A stretch of DNA of 30,698 nt, taken from assembly GCF_003334785.1 (NCBI RefSeq), contig NZ_QOWV01000028.1. One strand, written 5' to 3'. The position numbers were made by a program, and so were the translations under genes. Within the stretch, counting starts at the first letter, position 1; each line of letters opens with the position of its first letter. Origin of the DNA: Escherichia coli (GTDB lineage: Bacteria; Pseudomonadota; Gammaproteobacteria; Enterobacterales; Enterobacteriaceae). The notes under the pieces are model-generated. The model worked only from the letters and a program-made list of their open reading frames with translations. It did not search any database and was not told the DNA's origin. Positions 17,274 through 28,300 of the stretch are shown in pieces.

Positions 17274-17589
17274 CCGCTGACACAGGTCTGCGGCTGGAAT
17301 TGCCTGATGCGCTACGCTTATCAGGCCTACGAGTTCAGTGCTCTACGTAGGCCGGATAAGGCGTTCACGCCGCATCCGGCATAAACTACAGCTGGCAGAC
17401 AGCCGCTGCGAAGGCATTTTTGCACATGGCGTTGGAGGAATGCGCGGTTGTTGGCGGGAATGAATCACGGTAGCCGCTGACACAGATCAGCGGCTGGAAT
17501 TGCCTGATGCGCTACGCTTATCAGGCCTACGAGTTCAGTGCTCTACGTAGGCCGGATAAGGCGTTCACGCCGCATCCGGCATAAACTAA
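17190..17589. repeat. Two tandem copies of a 200-bp unit (17190-17389 and 17390-17589), each holding the last 27 codons of cynR plus a REP pair; about 97% identical
   Basis: Direct comparison of the two stretches shows six substitutions over 200 bp; copy 1 is contiguous with cynR, copy 2 is a detached cynR 3' fragment followed by the same REP sequences. Confidence 0.9.
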
Positions 17590-17609
17590 GCTCGCTGTAA
17601 CCCAGTCGT

Positions 17610-20292: not shown

Positions 20293-20455
20293 GGGTAGGC
20301 CTGATAAGACGCGTCAGCGTCGCATCAGGCATCTGAGCATGGTGTCGGATGCGACGCGAGCGCCTTATCCGACCTACGGTTCAGGTCCGTAGGCATGATA
20401 AAACGCGTCAGCGTCGCATCAGGCATCGGCACACAGTGCCGGATGCACCGCGCGA
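20293..20455. repeat. REP/BIME cluster between prpE (3' end) and the codBA promoter
   Basis: Repeated gtaggcctgataagacgcgtcagcgtcgcatcaggcat and gtcggatgcgacgcgagcgccttatccgacctac type palindromes read directly. Confidence 0.85.
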
Positions 20456-20471
20456 CGCATCCGACAATAAC

Positions 20472-22358
20472 CTACTCTTCCATCGCCTGGCGGATCTGAT
20501 CCAACGACGCAGGATCATCAATGGTCGTCAGATCTCCAGGATCGCGTCCTTCGCAAATCGCCTGGATCGTGCGGCGCAGCATTTTTCCGGATCGCGTTTT
20601 TGGCAATTGCGAGACAAACCAGACGTGCGCCGGGCGGCCAAAGTTGCCAATCTGGCTGTCCACCAGCGCCATAATCGCCTTCTCTTGCGAGTGCGCCACA
20701 TCACGATCTTCCAGACTGTCGCTCTCTTTCGGAATGACAAACGCCACCGCCACCTGCCCTTTCAGCGCATCTTTCACCCCAACCACCGCCACTTCGGCAA
20801 CGCCCGGATGGCTGGAGATACTCTCTTCAATCTCGCGCGTCCCCAGCCGATGCCCGGCAACGTTAATTACATCGTCAGTGCGCCCGAGAATAAAGTGATA
20901 ACCGTCAGCGTCACGGATGCCCCAGTCAAAGGTGGCGTACACCGGGCGGGAAAACAGCGACCAGTAAGTCTTCACAAAGCGGCCGTCGTCGCCCCAGATG
21001 GTCTGAATACACCCCGGCGGCAGCGGCCCTTCCACCACCAGCATCCCTTTCTCGTTGACGCCACACGGTTCGCCGGTGACTTCATTAAGCAACTGCACGT
21101 TATAGCCATACATCGGCACACCGGGGCTTCCCAGACGCGTCGGCCTGTCGTCCAGACCGCGAGCAATCGCCATAATCGGCCAGCCGGATTCGGTCTGCCA
21201 GTAGTTGTCGATGACCGGCACATCCAGCGTATTGCTCACCCAACTGGCGGTCGGCTCGTCCAGCGGTTCTCCAGCCAGATAGAGCACTTCCAGCGACGAG
21301 AGATCGTGTTTGCGAATTTCAGCGGTAGGGAATTTTTTCAGCACGCGAATGGCGGTCGGCGCTGAGAACATCCGGCTAACCTGATATTTCTCGACGATTT
21401 TCCACCACACGCCGCAGTCCGGCCAGGTCGGCAATCCTTCGTAAACGATAGTCGCCATCCCCGCCAGCAGCGGCGCGTAAACGATATACGAATGCCCCAC
21501 CACCCAGCCGATATCCGATGCGCAAAAGAACACGCTGCCCGCTTTGCCGCCAAAAATGGTGTCCATCGAGGTCGCCAGCGCCACCGCATATCCGCCGACG
21601 TCACGCTGCACGCCTTTAGGTTTGCCGGTCGTGCCGGAAGTGTAGAGAATGCAGGAGGTTTCGTTGGATTCCAGCCACGCCACCGGTACCCGCGCGCCGA
21701 TGTGTTGATGGCGCAACGACGCGAAATCGACATCCCGCCCGCTGACGCGCGCCATTTTCGCCAGCCCGCGATCCACCAGCAAAACATGGCGTGGCTGGTG
21801 CTGCGCCTGACTTATCGCATCGTCGAGCAATTTTTTATAGGGAATGATTTTGCCACCGCGCGCTCCGGCATCAGCCGAGACAATCAGCACCGGTTTAGCG
21901 TCATCAATTCGCGCCGCCACGCTGTGCGAGGCAAATCCACCAAACACCACCGAGTGAATAGCGCCAATGCGCGCGCAGGCCAGCAGAGTAATATGCGCTT
22001 CGGCAATCATCGGCATATACACCAGCACCCGATCGCCGCGCTGCACACCCAATGAACGCAACATTGAGGCCACCGCGTTCACTTCGTCATGCAGCTGACG
22101 AAAGGTAAAGGTGCGCTCTTCTTCTGTTTCCGAAGAGACGGCAATCAGCGCCAGCGCCTCTGGCTGTTTCTCCAGCCAGCGGTCGATGGCGTTGTGGCAC
22201 AAGTTGGTTCGGCCTTCACAAAACCAACGGGCAAACGGCGGATTGCTGTGATCGAGCGTTTGCGTAAAGGGCGTCTGCCAGTCAATACGCCGGGCCTGCT
22301 CGGCCCAGAACTGCTCCGGTTCGTTAATCGAACGCTGATAAAATTCGCTAAAAGACAT
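20472..22358 (-). CDS. prpE: propionyl-CoA synthetase (acyl-CoA ligase, AMP-forming)
   Basis: ORF 628 aa MSFSEFYQRSINEPEQFWAEQARRIDWQTPF... with the YTSGTTGKPKG AMP-binding motif; canonical PrpE length. Confidence 0.96.
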   Translation of the reverse strand: MSFSEFYQRSINEPEQFWAEQARRIDWQTPFTQTLDHSNPPFARWFCEGRTNLCHNAIDRWLEKQPEALALIAVSSETEEERTFTFRQLHDEVNAVASMLRSLGVQRGDRVLVYMPMIAEAHITLLACARIGAIHSVVFGGFASHSVAARIDDAKPVLIVSADAGARGGKIIPYKKLLDDAISQAQHQPRHVLLVDRGLAKMARVSGRDVDFASLRHQHIGARVPVAWLESNETSCILYTSGTTGKPKGVQRDVGGYAVALATSMDTIFGGKAGSVFFCASDIGWVVGHSYIVYAPLLAGMATIVYEGLPTWPDCGVWWKIVEKYQVSRMFSAPTAIRVLKKFPTAEIRKHDLSSLEVLYLAGEPLDEPTASWVSNTLDVPVIDNYWQTESGWPIMAIARGLDDRPTRLGSPGVPMYGYNVQLLNEVTGEPCGVNEKGMLVVEGPLPPGCIQTIWGDDGRFVKTYWSLFSRPVYATFDWGIRDADGYHFILGRTDDVINVAGHRLGTREIEESISSHPGVAEVAVVGVKDALKGQVAVAFVIPKESDSLEDRDVAHSQEKAIMALVDSQIGNFGRPAHVWFVSQLPKTRSGKMLRRTIQAICEGRDPGDLTTIDDPASLDQIRQAMEE

Positions 22359-22397: not shown

Positions 22398-23849
22398 TTA
22401 AATGACGTACAGGTCGAGATACTCATTGACCGGCATCTGTTCCAGGCGAGCTCTGTCGAGAGAAACCTCCAGAATGCGCTGCTGTTGGCGAGTCGGGAAC
22501 TGGCGCGCGAGATTGATTTTGAATTTATCGACCAGTTTCGGAATACCATCCTGACGGCGGCGAGCATGACCAATGGGGTACTCCACCACCACTTCTTCAA
22601 ATCGTGTGCCGTCGGTGAACTCAAGGGTAATGGCATTGGCGATGGCGCGTTTTTCCGGGTCGTGGTAGTCAGCGGTAAATGCCGGATCTTCAAAGCAATT
22701 GATCTTCTCGCGCAGGGCGTCAATGCGTTTATCTTGCGCAACGTTGTCCTCGTAATCTGCCGCCGTTAAGCGCCCGAATAGCAGCGGGATCGCCACCATG
22801 TACTGAATGCAGTGATCGCGGTCTGCCGGGTTATTGAGCGGCCCTTTTTTGTCGATGATGCGAATACAGGCTTCGTGGGTGCGAATGGTCACTTTTTCGA
22901 TATCCGCCGCCGTTTTGCCTGCTGCCTGCATCTGTTCATAGAGCGTCATCGCTGCTTCAACTGCCGTCTGGGAGTGGAACTCCGCCGGGAAGGAGATTTT
23001 GAACAGCACATTTTCCATAACGTAGGAACCGTACGGGCGCTGGAAGCGGAACGATTCACCTTTAAAGGAGACGTCGTAGAAGCCCCACACCGGCGCAGTC
23101 AGGGCTGACGGGTAACCCATTTCGCCCGTTTTCGCCATCAGTGCCAGACGTACCGCGCGGGAAGTGGCATCGCCCGCCGCCCAGGATTTACGCGTGCCGG
23201 TGTTCGGCGCATGGCGATAGGTGCGCAGCGACTGACCGTCCACCCACGCCAGCGAAACGGCGTTGAGAATTTCCTCGCGGGTCAGGCCGAGCATTTCGGC
23301 GACCACGGCGGTGGAAGCCACTTTCACTAACAGAACGTGGTCGAGGCCGACGCGGTTAAAGGAGTTTTCCAGCGCGATGCAGCCCTGAATTTCATGGGCT
23401 TTGATCATTGCGGTCAGCACCTGTTTCATGGTCAACGGCGCTTTGCCGCTGGCGACCGCGTTGCGCGAAAGCCAGTCCGCCGTTGCCAGAATGCCGCCGA
23501 GGTTGTCGGAAGGATGGCCCCACTCCGCCGCCAGCCAGGTATCGTTGAAATCGAGCCAGCGGATCATCGCGCCGATGTTAAATGCCGCCTGGACGGGGTC
23601 GAGCTGGAACTGAGTTCCGGGGACGCGCACGCCGTTGGGTACGACGGTGCCGGGAACAATTGGCCCCAGCAGTTTTTTACAGGCCGGGTATTCGAGAGCT
23701 TCCAGACCGCAGCCGAGCGTGTCGAGCAGGCAGTAATGTGCGGTGTCGTAGGCCACTTTAGAGCTGATTTCGTAGTTCATGACGTAATCGACGATATCAA
23801 CGATTTCACGATCAAATTCCGGGCGGATGTTGTTGATTTGAGCTGACAT
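22398..23849 (-). CDS. prpD: 2-methylcitrate dehydratase
   Basis: ORF 483 aa [52 protein letters not shown] (MmgE/PrpD family); canonical length. Confidence 0.96.
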
Positions 23850-23882: not shown

Positions 23883-25052
23883 TTACTGGCGCTTATCCAG
23901 CGCGACAAACGGGCGGTCTTCCGGTCCAACATAATTGGCGGAAGGACGGATAATTTTGTTGTCCTGACGTTGTTCGATAATGTGCGCCGCCCAGCCGGTG
24001 ACGCGGGCGATAACAAACAGTGGTGTGAACATCTCGGTGGGAACGCCCATCATGTTGTAGGAAACAGCAGAGAACCAGTCGAGATTGGGGAACATCTTTT
24101 TGCTCTCCCACATCACCGTTTCCAGGCGATCGGCGATGTTGTACATCTTCAGCGAGCCGCCTTCCTGCGAGAGCTGCTTCGCCACACGTTTAATCACCTG
24201 GTGGCGCGGGTCAGCGATGGTGTAAACCGGATGACCAAAACCAATGACCACTTCTTTGTTTTCCACGCGCTTGCGGATATCTGCTTCGGCTTCGTCCGGC
24301 GTTTCGTAGCGTTGCTGGATCTCCAGCGACACTTCATTCGCCCCGCCGTGTTTTGGCCCGCGCAGTGCGCCAATCGCGCCAATAATCGCGGAATACATAT
24401 CAGAGCCGGTGCCCGCAATCACCCGACTGGTAAAGGTGGAGGCGTTAAACTCGTGTTCGGCGTACAGCACCAGCGAGATATGCATCGCCTTTTCCCAGCT
24501 TTGCGATGGCTTTTCGCCGTGCAGCAGATGCAGGAAGTGACCGCCGATGGAGTCGTCATCGGTTTCCGGTTGGATGCGTTCGCCGTTGTGGCTGTAGTGA
24601 TACCAATAAAGGAGAATCGAGCTAAGCGACGCCAGCAGTTTGTCGGCAATATCCCGCGCGCCAGAGACGGTATGCCCCTCTTTTTCTGGCAGCGTGCAGC
24701 CGAGCGCGGAAACACCGGTGCGCATAACATCCATCGGGTGCGACGCCGCCGGTAAGGCTTCCAGCACGGTACGCACGTTAGCCGGTAAACCGCGCAGGGC
24801 TTTCAGTTTCGTTTTGTAAGCGGCGAGTTCGTCACGGGTCGGCAGTTTGCCGTGGATCAGCAGATGCGCCACTTCTTCAAATTCGCAATGTTTCGCCAGA
24901 TCAAGAATATCGTAGCCGCGGTAATGCAGGTCATTGCCACTTTTACCCACGGTGCAGAGCGCCGTATTGCCCGCCGGAACGCCAGAAAGTGCCACAGATT
25001 TTTTCGGTTTAATGACATGGGTACTGTTTTGCAGGATCGTTGTGTCGCTCAT
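23883..25052 (-). CDS. prpC: 2-methylcitrate synthase
   Basis: ORF 389 aa [52 protein letters not shown] (citrate synthase family); canonical length. Confidence 0.96.
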
Positions 25053-25084
25053 GTTGTCCTCGTCATTGTTATCATTTGTAGGGT

Positions 25085-25560
25085 CGAGATTGTTGTCGGA
25101 TGCGACGCTATGCGTCTTATCCGACCTACAGTTCAGTTCACCCCGTAGGCCTGATAAGTCGCGTCAGCGGCGCATCAGGCATCGGTTGTCGGATGCGACG
25201 CTATGCGTCTTATCCGACCTACAGTTCAGTGCACCCCGTAGGCCTGATAAGTCGCGTCAGCGGCGCATCAGGCATCGGTTGTCGGATGCGACGCTATGCG
25301 TCTTATCCGACCTACAGTTCAGTGCACCCCGTAGGCCTGATAAGTCGCGTCAGCGGCGCATCAGGCATCGGTTGTCGGATGCGACGCTATGCGTCTTATC
25401 CGACCTACAGTTCAGTGCACCCCGTAGGCCTGATAAGTCACGTCAGCGGCGCATCAGGCATCGGTTGTCGGATGCGACGCCATCCGTCTTATCCGACCTA
25501 CAGTTCAGTGCACCTCGTAGGCCTGATAAGTCGCGTCAGCGACGCATCAGGCATCGGCTG
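25085..25560. repeat. BIME array: five tandem 93-bp units, each a head-to-head REP pair, between prpC and prpB
   Basis: Unit starts at 25085, 25178, 25271, 25364, 25457 (and a degenerate edge at 25550), giving a period of exactly 93 bp; units are near-identical with divergence at the array ends. The reverse-frame ORFs across it are repeat translations. Confidence 0.92.
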
Positions 25561-25584
25561 TCGAATACAATCAACGGGCGTTTT

Positions 25585-26475
25585 TTATTTCACCTGGCTA
25601 CGGGCAAACAGGTTGTCGAGCTTCTCTTCGTACTGGTAGTAGTTGATGCTTTCGTACAGCTCGTTGCGGGTCTGCATGGTGTCGATGACGCTTTTCTGCG
25701 TGCCTTCCTGGCGCAGGACGTTGTAGACATGTTCAGCGGCGCGGTTCATGGCGCGGAACGCTGAAAGTGGGTACAGCGCCATTGCGACATGGGCGCTGCG
25801 TAATTCGTCGGTGGTAAACAGCGGCGTGGCACCAAATTCGGTGATGTTGGCGAGGATCGGCACCTGCACCGCATCGGCAAACTGGCGGTACATGGCGAGT
25901 TCGGTAATCGCCTCCGGGAACAACATCTCGGCACCCGCTTCAACATAGGCCTGCGCACGCTCGATCGCCGCATCCAGCCCCTCTACCGCCAGAGCATCGG
26001 TGCGCGCCATGATCACAAAATCAGGATCGGTTTTCGCATCCACCGCCGCGCGGATCCGATCCACCATCTCTTCTTTCGAGACGATCGCTTTATTCGGACG
26101 ATGACCGCAGCGTTTCGCACCAACCTGATCTTCAATATGCAATCCTGCCGCACCGGCTTTAATCATCGATTTCACGGTGCGCGCCACGTTAAAGGCCGAA
26201 GAACCAAAACCGATATCCGCATCCACCAGCAGCGGCAGCGAACAAACGTCGGTGATACGGCGAATGTCGGTCAGCACATCATCAAGGGTAGAAATACCGA
26301 GATCGGGCAGCCCCAGCGAACCTGCCGCCACGCCACCGCCAGAAAGATAAATTGCCTGATATCCGGCACGCTGCGCCAACAGCGCATGATTAGCGTTGAT
26401 GGTGCCAACAATCTGCAATGGATTTTCTTTAGTCAGTGCAGCGCGAAACGCTTTACCTGGAGAGTGTAGAGACAT
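25585..26475 (-). CDS. prpB: 2-methylisocitrate lyase
   Basis: ORF 296 aa [60 protein letters not shown] (PEP mutase/isocitrate lyase family); canonical length. Confidence 0.96.
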
Positions 26476-26522
26476 AGCCCATCCTTTGTTATCAACTTGT
26501 TATTTGCGTTGATAAAGACAAA

Positions 26523-26537
26523 GCAAGGGGTGTGCCA
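26523..26537 (-). promoter_or_regulatory. sigma-54 (-24/-12) promoter of prpBCDE: minus-strand TGGCAC-ACCCC-TTGC
   Basis: Plus strand reads gcaaggggtgtgcca, so the minus strand is TGGCACACCCCTTGC, a perfect match to the GG-N10-GC sigma-54 consensus about 48-62 bp upstream of the prpB ATG; an AT-rich bend/IHF-like tract follows at 26544-26590. Confidence 0.85.
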
Positions 26538-26610
26538 CAATTGCCTTAATAAAATTAAATGTTTAATTTCAATTTGTTAGAGATAAAGTCATGAACTAAT
26601 CCGCAAATAT

Positions 26611-26670
26611 GCGTTTCAGTTAACGTTTCAGGCAATGTTTCACCGCGTTTCATTGCAACAATTATGAAAC
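26611..26670. promoter_or_regulatory. Putative PrpR enhancer (upstream activating) sites: four direct GTTTCA repeats ending in the palindrome GTTTCAT-N10-ATGAAAC
   Basis: GTTTCA at 26613, 26625, 26637, 26647 and inverted TGAAAC at 26665; it sits in the prpR-prpB divergent region, about 90-150 bp upstream of the sigma-54 promoter, as expected for an enhancer-binding-protein site. Binding is inferred. Confidence 0.55.
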
Positions 26671-26713
26671 AAGACTAAACCCAATATTCGGTTTCTTAAC
26701 TTTGCGGTGCGCT

Positions 26714-28300
26714 ATGGCACATCCACCACGGCTTAATGACGACAAACCGGTTATCTGGACGGTATCTGTAACGCGCCTGTTCGAGCTGTTTCGCGATATC
26801 AGCCTCGAGTTTGATCACCTGGCGAACATTACCCCTATTCAGCTTGGCTTTGAAAAAGCAGTGACCTACATCCGCAAGAAACTGGCAAACGAACGCTGTG
26901 ACGCCATCATCGCGGCTGGCTCTAACGGCGCGTACCTGAAAAGCCGCCTGTCAGTGCCAGTTATTTTGATTAAACCGAGCGGCTACGATGTGTTACAGGC
27001 ACTGGCAAAAGCCGGAAAACTCACCTCTTCTATCGGCGTTGTCACCTATCAGGAAACCATTCCAGCGCTGGTGGCGTTTCAAAAAACCTTTAATTTGCGC
27101 CTCGACCAACGTAGCTACATTACCGAGGAAGACGCACGCGGGCAGATTAACGAGCTAAAAGCTAACGGCACCGAAGCGGTGGTCGGCGCAGGGCTGATTA
27201 CCGATTTGGCAGAAGAAGCCGGAATGACCGGAATTTTTATCTATTCCGCCGCCACCGTGCGCCAGGCGTTCAGCGATGCGCTGGATATGACGCGCATGTC
27301 GTTACGCCATAACACTCACGATGCCACCCGCAACGCCCTGCGTACTCGTTACGTGCTGGGCGATATGCTCGGTCAATCACCACAGATGGAACAAGTACGG
27401 CAGACTATTTTGCTGTATGCCCGCTCCAGTGCGGCGGTGTTGATTGAGGGGGAAACGGGGACGGGCAAAGAGCTGGCGGCCCAGGCGATTCATCGGGAAT
27501 ATTTTGCCCGCCACGATGCGCGACAGGGCAAAAAGTCGCATCCGTTTGTTGCCGTCAACTGCGGGGCGATTGCCGAATCGCTGCTGGAAGCAGAACTGTT
27601 TGGCTATGAGGAAGGGGCGTTTACCGGCTCGCGACGCGGAGGTCGCGCCGGGCTGTTCGAAATTGCCCACGGCGGTACGCTGTTTCTGGATGAGATTGGC
27701 GAAATGCCGCTACCTTTGCAGACCCGGCTGCTGCGGGTGCTGGAAGAAAAAGAGGTCACCCGCGTCGGCGGGCATCAGCCTGTTCCGGTAGATGTACGGG
27801 TCATTAGCGCCACTCACTGCAATCTGGAAGAAGATATGCAGCAAGGACGTTTTCGCCGTGATCTGTTTTATCGGCTGAGTATTTTGCGTCTGCAATTGCC
27901 ACCACTGCGCGAGCGGGTGGCGGATATTCTTCCGCTGGCGGAAAGCTTTTTGAAAGTGTCTCTGGCGGCGCTCTCCGCCCCATTTTCTGCTGCATTACGC
28001 CAGGGGTTACAGGCAAGTGAAACTGTGCTGCTGCACTACGACTGGCCAGGCAATATTCGTGAACTGCGCAATATGATGGAACGACTGGCGCTGTTTTTAA
28101 GTGTGGAACCGACGCCGGATTTAACGCCGCAGTTTATGCAACTGCTACTGCCGGAACTGGCGCGCGAGTCGGCGAAAACTCCCGCTCCACGCTTACTGAC
28201 ACCACAACAGGCACTGGAGAAATTTAATGGCGATAAAACAGCAGCGGCGAATTATTTAGGCATCAGCCGGACGACGTTCTGGCGGCGGCTGAAAAGCTGA
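26714..28300 (+). CDS. prpR: sigma-54-dependent transcriptional activator of the prp operon
   Basis: ORF track 532 aa from a TTG at 26702; canonical 528-aa PrpR begins [19 protein letters not shown] (ATG 26714); central AAA+ sigma-54 interaction domain (GETGTGKE Walker A, GAFTG motif) and C-terminal HTH. Confidence 0.94.

Follow-up and report, generated by a model that had tools for sequence, protein, structure and literature searches.

A tandem BIME-2 array of variable copy number in the prpB-prpC spacer of Escherichia coli

The REPs at malE-malF and hisJ-hisQ reportedly stall 3' exonucleases and favour the upstream cistron, in work said to go back to Newbury et al. in 1987. These classical stabilisers consist of one or two REPs within a polycistronic mRNA, whereas the array considered here, located between prpB and prpC of E. 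coli, contains ten. The closest known relative of the prp array is the naRNA4 locus REP325, in the yjdM-yjdN spacer of MG1655, which is likewise a tandem array of y and z2 REPs. A 2026 preprint, with the original naRNA4 laboratory among its contributors, reported that, when REP325 is deleted, expression downstream of it goes up about 8-10-fold and the mRNA of the upstream gene falls 3- to 160-fold, and that the attenuation by REP325 is partly Rho-dependent and yields a ladder of hairpin-ended RNAs. The same study found neither a compaction role for REP325/naRNA4 nor REP-REP contacts, and its authors argued that REP effects are context-dependent rather than uniform across the genome. REP hairpins are also known to shield Rho-terminated transcripts from exonucleases.

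Other activities of REPs have been described at the level of DNA and of translation. Gyrase cleavage sites are over-represented in BIME-2 elements, with a preference for y REPs and independently of transcription, and only a subset of the elements is cleaved; the BIME-2 gyrase sites at sucC-sucB and tldD-yhdP (Espeli and Boccard 1997; Sutormin 2018) belong to the same element class as the prp array. Ribosomes can be stalled by a REP located downstream of a stop codon, which is also the arrangement at prpB, but according to Liang, Rudd and Deutscher 2015 this requires a REP no more than 15 nt from the stop codon.

The prpB-prpC repeat and its variation from strain to strain have already been published (PMC7360682, PMC3045373), and a "prpB // prpC repeat" is listed among the causes of contig breaks in K-12 NCM3722. 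Pobeguts et al. found that prpB is induced more strongly than the downstream genes in one isolate, and that the number of repeats differs between strains. According to papers that cite Simonte et al. 2017 (Mol Microbiol 103:55), that work showed degradation of the prpBCDE mRNA by RNase R and the ability of an rnr mutant to use propionate anaerobically; it is cited by Pobeguts et al. for the possibility that RNase R targets these repeats. The presence of a BIME-2 array, its copy-number polymorphism and the functional idea for REPs are thus already known, and are ordinary.

The array analysed here lies in a stretch of 30,698 nucleotides of K-12-like E. coli DNA (contig NZ_QOWV01000028.1), referred to below as the window. 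Like REP325, it occupies an untranslated spacer between co-directional, co-transcribed genes and has the same orientation relative to transcription. The two arrays are similar in size (5.1 copies of 93 bp at prp, 5.8 copies of 100 bp at REP325) and differ in the head-to-head linker (15 versus 17 nt) and in the tail-to-tail junction (7 versus 13 nt). The z2 REP of the prp array is close to that of REP325, whereas its y REP is a GTCGGAT/ATCCGAC variant unlike that of REP325. The effects of REP325 have been measured, while those of the prp array are argued from it by analogy.

Structure, class and operon context of the array

Tandem Repeats Finder (TRF) reported a single array at 25092-25563, with a period of 93, 5.1 copies, 97% matches, zero indels and a score of 895, and the same 93-nt register was found again by a second, separate repeat search of the window. 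Such a repeat structure cannot have arisen by chance. A preliminary description of this DNA had placed five head-to-tail 93-bp units in the prpB-prpC spacer, on which both searches agree; of the span that it gave for the array, 25085-25560, the end was right and the start was 7 nt early, the true start being 25092. It had also described a 532-bp spacer consisting almost entirely of repeat, and measurement gave exactly this length (25053-25584, the prpC start codon ending at 25052 and the prpB stop codon occupying 25585-25587), with 465 bp, or 87%, in the five full units. The units are numbered u1 to u5 from the prpC end (Table 1), and the remnant of a sixth unit beyond u5 matches the unit at 8 of its first 10 nt.

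The central units are nearly identical and the outer ones carry substitutions, much as the preliminary description had it: u2 and u3 are the same sequence, from which u1 and u4 each depart by a single substitution and u5, next to prpB, by four. Concerted evolution, which had been offered as the explanation, is more than is needed. The MG1655 spacer, of 439 bp (349573-350011), has the four units u1, u2, u4 and u5, and the window has the same arrangement with one extra u2, so that a very recent duplication of this one unit suffices to account for the identical central units.

Table 1. Coordinates of the prp genes, the repeat array and associated elements in the window
Feature	Position	Strand	Basis
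prpE, after prpD	20472-22358	-	NCBIfam equivalog model, 1308 bits
prpD, after prpC	22398-23849	-	NCBIfam equivalog model, 929 bits
prpC, 2-methylcitrate synthase, downstream of the array	23883-25052	-	NCBIfam NF009006, 720 bits
prpC leader and ribosome-binding site (GACGAGGACAACATG on the - strand)	25053-25091	-	Cross-genus spacer comparison
Five full 93-bp BIME-2 units, u1 (prpC end) to u5 (prpB end)	25092-25556	-	TRF, unit sequences, pairwise differences
y-type REP of u1 (GTAGGTCGGATAAGACGCATAGCGTCGCATCCGAC on the - strand)	25095-25129	-	GTAG heads, hairpin, compensatory changes
y-type REPs of the other four units	25188-25222, 25281-25315, 25374-25408, 25467-25501		
15-nt head-to-head short linker AGTTCAGTKCACCCC, in every unit	25130-25144	.	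Unit sequences
z2-type REP of u1 (GTAGGCCTGATAAGTCGCGTCAGCGGCGCATCAGGC on the + strand)	25145-25180	+	GTAG heads, hairpin, likeness to REP325 z2
z2-type REPs of the other four units	25238-25273, 25331-25366, 25424-25459, 25517-25552		
Sixth-unit remnant GCTGTCGAATAC (decayed y tail) and prpB 3' flank	25557-25584	-	TRF, 5.1 copies
prpB, methylisocitrate lyase, upstream of the array	25585-26475	-	NCBIfam NF008455, 561 bits
Candidate sigma-54-type -24/-12 element TGGCACACCCCTTGCT, upstream of prpB	26522-26537	-	Best match; sole 1-mismatch match in the window
prpR, divergent, sigma-54 activator gene		+	NCBIfam equivalog model, 1013 bits

Each unit contains two opposed REP heads, GTAGGTCGGATAAG on the - strand and GTAGGCCTGATAAG on the + strand. 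On the + strand, a unit reads through an inverted y REP (GTCGGATGCGACGCTATGCGTCTTATCCGACCTAC), the head-to-head linker (AGTTCAGTGCACCCC), the z2 REP and a 7-nt tail-to-tail junction, which reads ATCG/GTT between units. The REP head GTAGGYCKGATAAG occurs ten times in the array (five on each strand), 20 times in the window and not once in shuffled sequences. The GTAG foot tetranucleotide is kept, ten heads of the form GTAGG(Y)C(K)GATAAG being present in the array where none is expected by chance. The pair of oppositely oriented palindromes that the preliminary description had assigned to every unit is therefore present throughout, with ten heads distributed as one per strand per unit. All of these REPs are extragenic, none of them reaching the stop codon of prpB or the start codon of prpC.

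The REPs are imperfect palindromes, in which stems of 7 and 3-5 bp flank a 2x2 internal loop. Folded as RNA on the operon sense strand, the y REP hairpin is predicted at -19.2 kcal/mol (z -5.8) and the z2 REP hairpin at -16.3 kcal/mol (z -4.4), and the whole spacer at -250.8 kcal/mol (z -10.8). An alignment of 16 REP variants, drawn from the window, REP325, another E. coli allele and E. albertii, is 98.4% paired in this two-stem structure and has changes on both sides of the stem at 4 pairs, a degree of covariation that was reached in 0 of 500 shuffles. The y REP of the prp array provides a clear instance, since the canonical GCCGGAT/ATCCGGC has become GTCGGAT/ATCCGAC by a compensatory change, with a T at stem position 2 and the matching A.

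By the published definition, y and z2 REPs alternate with opposite orientation in a BIME-2, which has a short S linker between the heads, an s-, l- or r-type flank between the tails, and multiple tandem copies. A BIME-1 occurs as one z1/y pair whose long L linker bears an IHF site. The paired REPs of the prp array had been called BIMEs in the preliminary description, and more exactly the element is a BIME-2 array, y and z2 being called by alignment to REP325. Its y REPs (GxCGGAT-type) and z2 REPs (GCCTGAT-type) alternate head to head, the linker between the heads is short (15 nt), the tail-to-tail junction measures 7 nt, and the tandem copy number is variable (5.1 here, 0-5 in other E. coli and 3.5 in E. 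albertii). A BIME-1 can be rejected on the short linker, the tandem copies and the finding that the IHF consensus WATCAANNNNTTR has no match within the spacer, 25053-25584. The suggestion that the array is an IHF binding platform is not supported, for IHF binding belongs to the L linker of BIME-1 and not to BIME-2.

The three inter-unit tail-to-tail junctions that score highest against the Rfam naRNA4 model (RF02564), which was built on REP325, reach 63.1 bits on the sense strand, above the gathering threshold of 59.5 bits, and further matches score 57.7, 35.1 and 29.7 bits. Two other BIMEs in the window score higher, at 79.3 and 71.6 bits. The naRNA4 model therefore recognises generic z2/y pairs, and a score above its threshold indicates membership among REP pairs rather than function.

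The scores of prpB, prpC, prpD, prpE and prpR far exceed the NCBIfam equivalog cut-offs. The array had been described as internal to the prpBCDE operon, and the evidence agrees: the genes lie on one strand, neither sigma-70-like promoters nor intrinsic terminators were predicted in 24800-26800 (a region that covers the spacer), a sigma-54-like element lies upstream of prpB, and the prpBCDE mRNA is described in the literature as polycistronic. The predicted sigma-54 element is likely the operon promoter, a reading that draws on its position near prpR, as the number of such matches is not above chance. The array was also considered as an intrinsic terminator and rejected, with 0 terminator-like sites (a GC-rich hairpin followed by a U run) in 24800-26800. 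An exact match to the IHF consensus, TATCAACTTGTTA, lies at 26490-26502 (+), in the interval from the sigma-54-like element to the start of prpB, and is one of two in the whole window, a number not above chance.

Copy number in E. coli and the spacer in other species

The copy number of BIME-2 elements generally differs between strains, and the preliminary description had expected as much of this array. For a census, RefSeq complete E. coli genomes were sampled systematically twice, with 59 informative genomes each time and 118 in total; the first sample was queried with the array, and the second with the flanks only, the units being read from the span between them in the record. The expected variation was found, with 0-5 units, a range that holds for these 118 sampled genomes and is not a full count. 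The most frequent allele has no unit, only a 44-bp spacer without any REP (44 genomes, 37%), followed by one unit in 34 genomes (29%), including O157:H7 and Nissle-like strains, and four units in 28 (24%), including K-12 (MG1655) and BL21. Three units were found in 7 genomes, five in 4 and two in a single genome. The array query was covered over at least 80% in 3,137 of 5,220 E. coli genomes, which agrees with the sampled census, and the array is absent in about 37-40% of E. coli genomes. It can be concluded that any effect of the array is dispensable, and that selection for it is weak or lineage-specific.

Copy number changes between strains in whole 93-bp steps and follows flank identity, that is lineage, yet homoplasy is present. 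A second five-unit allele, with 96% identity and other unit variants, occurs in a different lineage. Of the 5,220 genomes, only those of XL1-Blue (NZ_CP081007.1) and Origami2(DE3) (NZ_CP084529.1) have exactly the five-unit allele of the window, and every other K-12 genome among the matches listed has four units. Either a unit has been gained during laboratory propagation, or the assemblies are in error. XL1-Blue and Origami2(DE3) both harbour F' lac-pro episomes, and the TG1 F' record (NZ_CP128219.1) has four units; a common episomal origin, independent gain and assembly error are all possible sources of the shared allele. A few genomes have partial loci. The prp locus of SCU-171 (NZ_CP054363.1) has prpB adjoining a cytosine permease gene, which suggests that prpCDE has been deleted, and in the ST131 strain 2017_APHA (NZ_CP051615.1) only 55 bp of the locus matched. 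There was no match whatever in 206 of 5,426 genomes.

The spacer was also compared across species, using one PrpB-bearing genome for each. In E. albertii the orthologous spacer contains 3.5 units of the same 93-bp y/z2 family (L010 3391-3797), the final y REP being replaced by GTAATCCCGACCCTAC, and one unit each is present in the genome of a cryptic Escherichia clade and in the representative genome of E. coli. Citrobacter species and Salmonella enterica subsp. arizonae and diarizonae have one or two different REPs, which begin at the prpB stop codon. REPs are thus found in the prpB-prpC spacer of three genera, Escherichia, Citrobacter and Salmonella. The Kluyvera spacer retains a REP remnant, and those of Pseudocitrobacter and Shimwellia are short and without REPs.

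On this comparison the occupied spacer is the ancestral state in Escherichia and the 0-unit allele of E. coli a derived, later loss, because E. albertii carries 3.5 units of the same family. The prpC leader is conserved from Escherichia to Citrobacter and Salmonella, and the 0-unit allele (L003 401-444) lacks 9 bp of it, ATGATAACA, that are kept in all three genera; the loss of these 9 bp might alter the initiation of prpC translation. Simple excision of the units would not give the 0-unit allele, whose prpB-side flank (ATTTTTCGTTGTGTT, + strand) mismatches that of the occupied allele and from which the 9 bp are also gone. The differing flank and the incomplete prpC leader together argue that more than one event lies behind it.

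Ribosome stalling at the E. coli prpB stop codon was considered and set aside. The computed distance from the stop codon to the first REP stem is 32 nt, which exceeds the limit of 15 nt, so that stalling should not apply in E. coli. The arrangement in Citrobacter and in Salmonella arizonae and diarizonae (loci L012, L015, L017-L019 and L022-L029, at about 3380-3510) is different, the prpB stop codon TAG falling within the GTAG of the REP head with a gap of 0 nt, and judging from this spacing the REP there could stall terminating ribosomes by the mechanism of Liang et al.

Possible effects on prpBCDE expression

The explanation that we favour, with somewhat better than even confidence and by analogy with REP325, is that the BIME-2 array attenuates transcription into prpCDE and protects the prpB mRNA. 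The array would be transcribed within the prpBCDE mRNA to give a row of ten stable hairpins. Transcription would be partly attenuated there, in part through Rho, so that less RNA polymerase would reach prpCDE, and the hairpins would block 3'-to-5' exonucleases, so that the upstream prpB segment would outlive the distal part of the message. Together, attenuation and protection would raise the ratio of prpB to prpCDE mRNA. RNase R, which is able to digest structured REP RNA, would set the persistence of the mRNA intermediates. With a C/G ratio of 0.97 and a high degree of structure, however, the RNA of the array is not a typical Rho loading site. The preliminary description had proposed a stabiliser, decay barrier or partial terminator, and each of these roles is plausible because such effects have been measured for the near-identical REP325 array. 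The effect would modulate expression without being essential, given the many E. coli lineages that have a single unit or lack the array. Unequal recombination between units, or slippage during replication, probably accounts for their gain and loss, and a REP-associated transposase may have seeded the array in the first place.

The main alternative is that the array is a passive, selfish or neutral repeat, produced by REP proliferation and tandem amplification, that has no measurable effect on prp and drifts in copy number. The census is what such a repeat would leave behind, with 0-5 copies that are strongly lineage-structured and missing altogether from a large fraction of genomes, a change of one unit within K-12 laboratory lineages, and a literature in which BIME-2 elements vary in the same way generally. 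This account is harder to reconcile with the strong action of REP325, the closest studied analogue, on both of its flanking genes, with the persistence of REPs in this spacer across the three genera, and with ten mRNA hairpins of -16 to -19 kcal/mol each, which are unlikely to be inert; we regard it as perhaps a one-in-four prospect. A main role at the DNA level seems decidedly improbable, with strong gyrase binding and cleavage in the array relieving the supercoiling that transcription induces, or insulating the genes downstream from that of the divergent prpR/prpB promoters. This holds for it as the explanation, even though binding of gyrase, another of the functions proposed at the outset, is itself plausible. 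BIME-2 elements are enriched for cleavage with y REPs preferred, and the prp array has five of these, but they are of the GTCGGAT variant rather than GCCGGAT, the prp locus is not among the cleaved subset that has been named, and a gyrase role is in any case compatible with effects at the RNA level.

Two further readings take the units as encoding a product. One is that they give rise to small RNAs resembling naRNA4, which would bind to HU and bring about nucleoid condensation, a reading to which the three junctions above the Rfam gathering score lend some colour. The force of those scores is lost when the model accepts in effect any z2/y REP pair, including the higher-scoring BIMEs elsewhere in the window. 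The prp operon is silent without propionate, and RNAs of this kind would be made only rarely. With the founding member REP325/naRNA4 itself found to have no compaction role in the 2026 preprint, we consider the reading very unlikely. The other is that the array encodes a protein, through an ORF at 25100-25639 (+) of 179 aa for which some RefSeq genomes list a "hypothetical protein"; the PGAP entry WP_001526095.1 belongs to a different five-unit allele (L007 448-987). The frame is open throughout the array because 93 nt is exactly 31 codons, and the product is a 31-residue repeat translated from palindromes. The ORF also runs antisense to the prp genes and into the end of prpB, becomes shorter with fewer units and disappears with none, and MG1655 has no gene annotated at its position. 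It is very likely a spurious call, and a genuine gene here can hardly be credited. The MG1655 locus tags jump from b0331 to b0333 at this position.

If the preferred explanation, attenuation into prpCDE with protection of prpB mRNA, is extended to copy number, then the number of units would act as a heritable, stepwise dial on the stoichiometry of prpB to prpCDE, and would explain lineage differences in propionate use. We rate this extension as unlikely. If true, the dial would be set at 0 units in many lineages, at one in others and at 2-5 in K-12-like strains, and would cover both the inability of K-12 to use propionate under anaerobic conditions, which depends on RNase R, and the quicker adaptation to propionate reported for a Crohn's isolate with a different number of repeats. 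The natural alleles of 0 to 5 units constitute a ready series for the question of whether REP number tunes expression within an operon, with REP325 as the mechanistic model. Two practical points also arise from the locus, namely that assemblies can miscount prp units, and that automated annotation sometimes places a spurious ORF over the repeats.

Other REP elements in the window

Other BIMEs occur elsewhere in the window. The highest naRNA4 score, 79.3 bits, belongs to a BIME at 3-114, downstream of mhpE. A tandem duplication of 200 bp at 17190-17592 (2.0 copies, 96% match) holds the 3' end of cynR together with a z/y REP pair, so that the BIME appears to have been duplicated along with the gene end; its head-to-head linker, GAGTTCAGTGCTCTAC, resembles that of the prp array. 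In the prpE-codB spacer, just downstream of prpE, a tail-to-tail z2/y BIME at 20295-20377 scores 71.6 bits with naRNA4 and shares the unusual y variant of the prp array, GTAGGTCGGATAAG, so that prpCDE is bracketed by related REPs.
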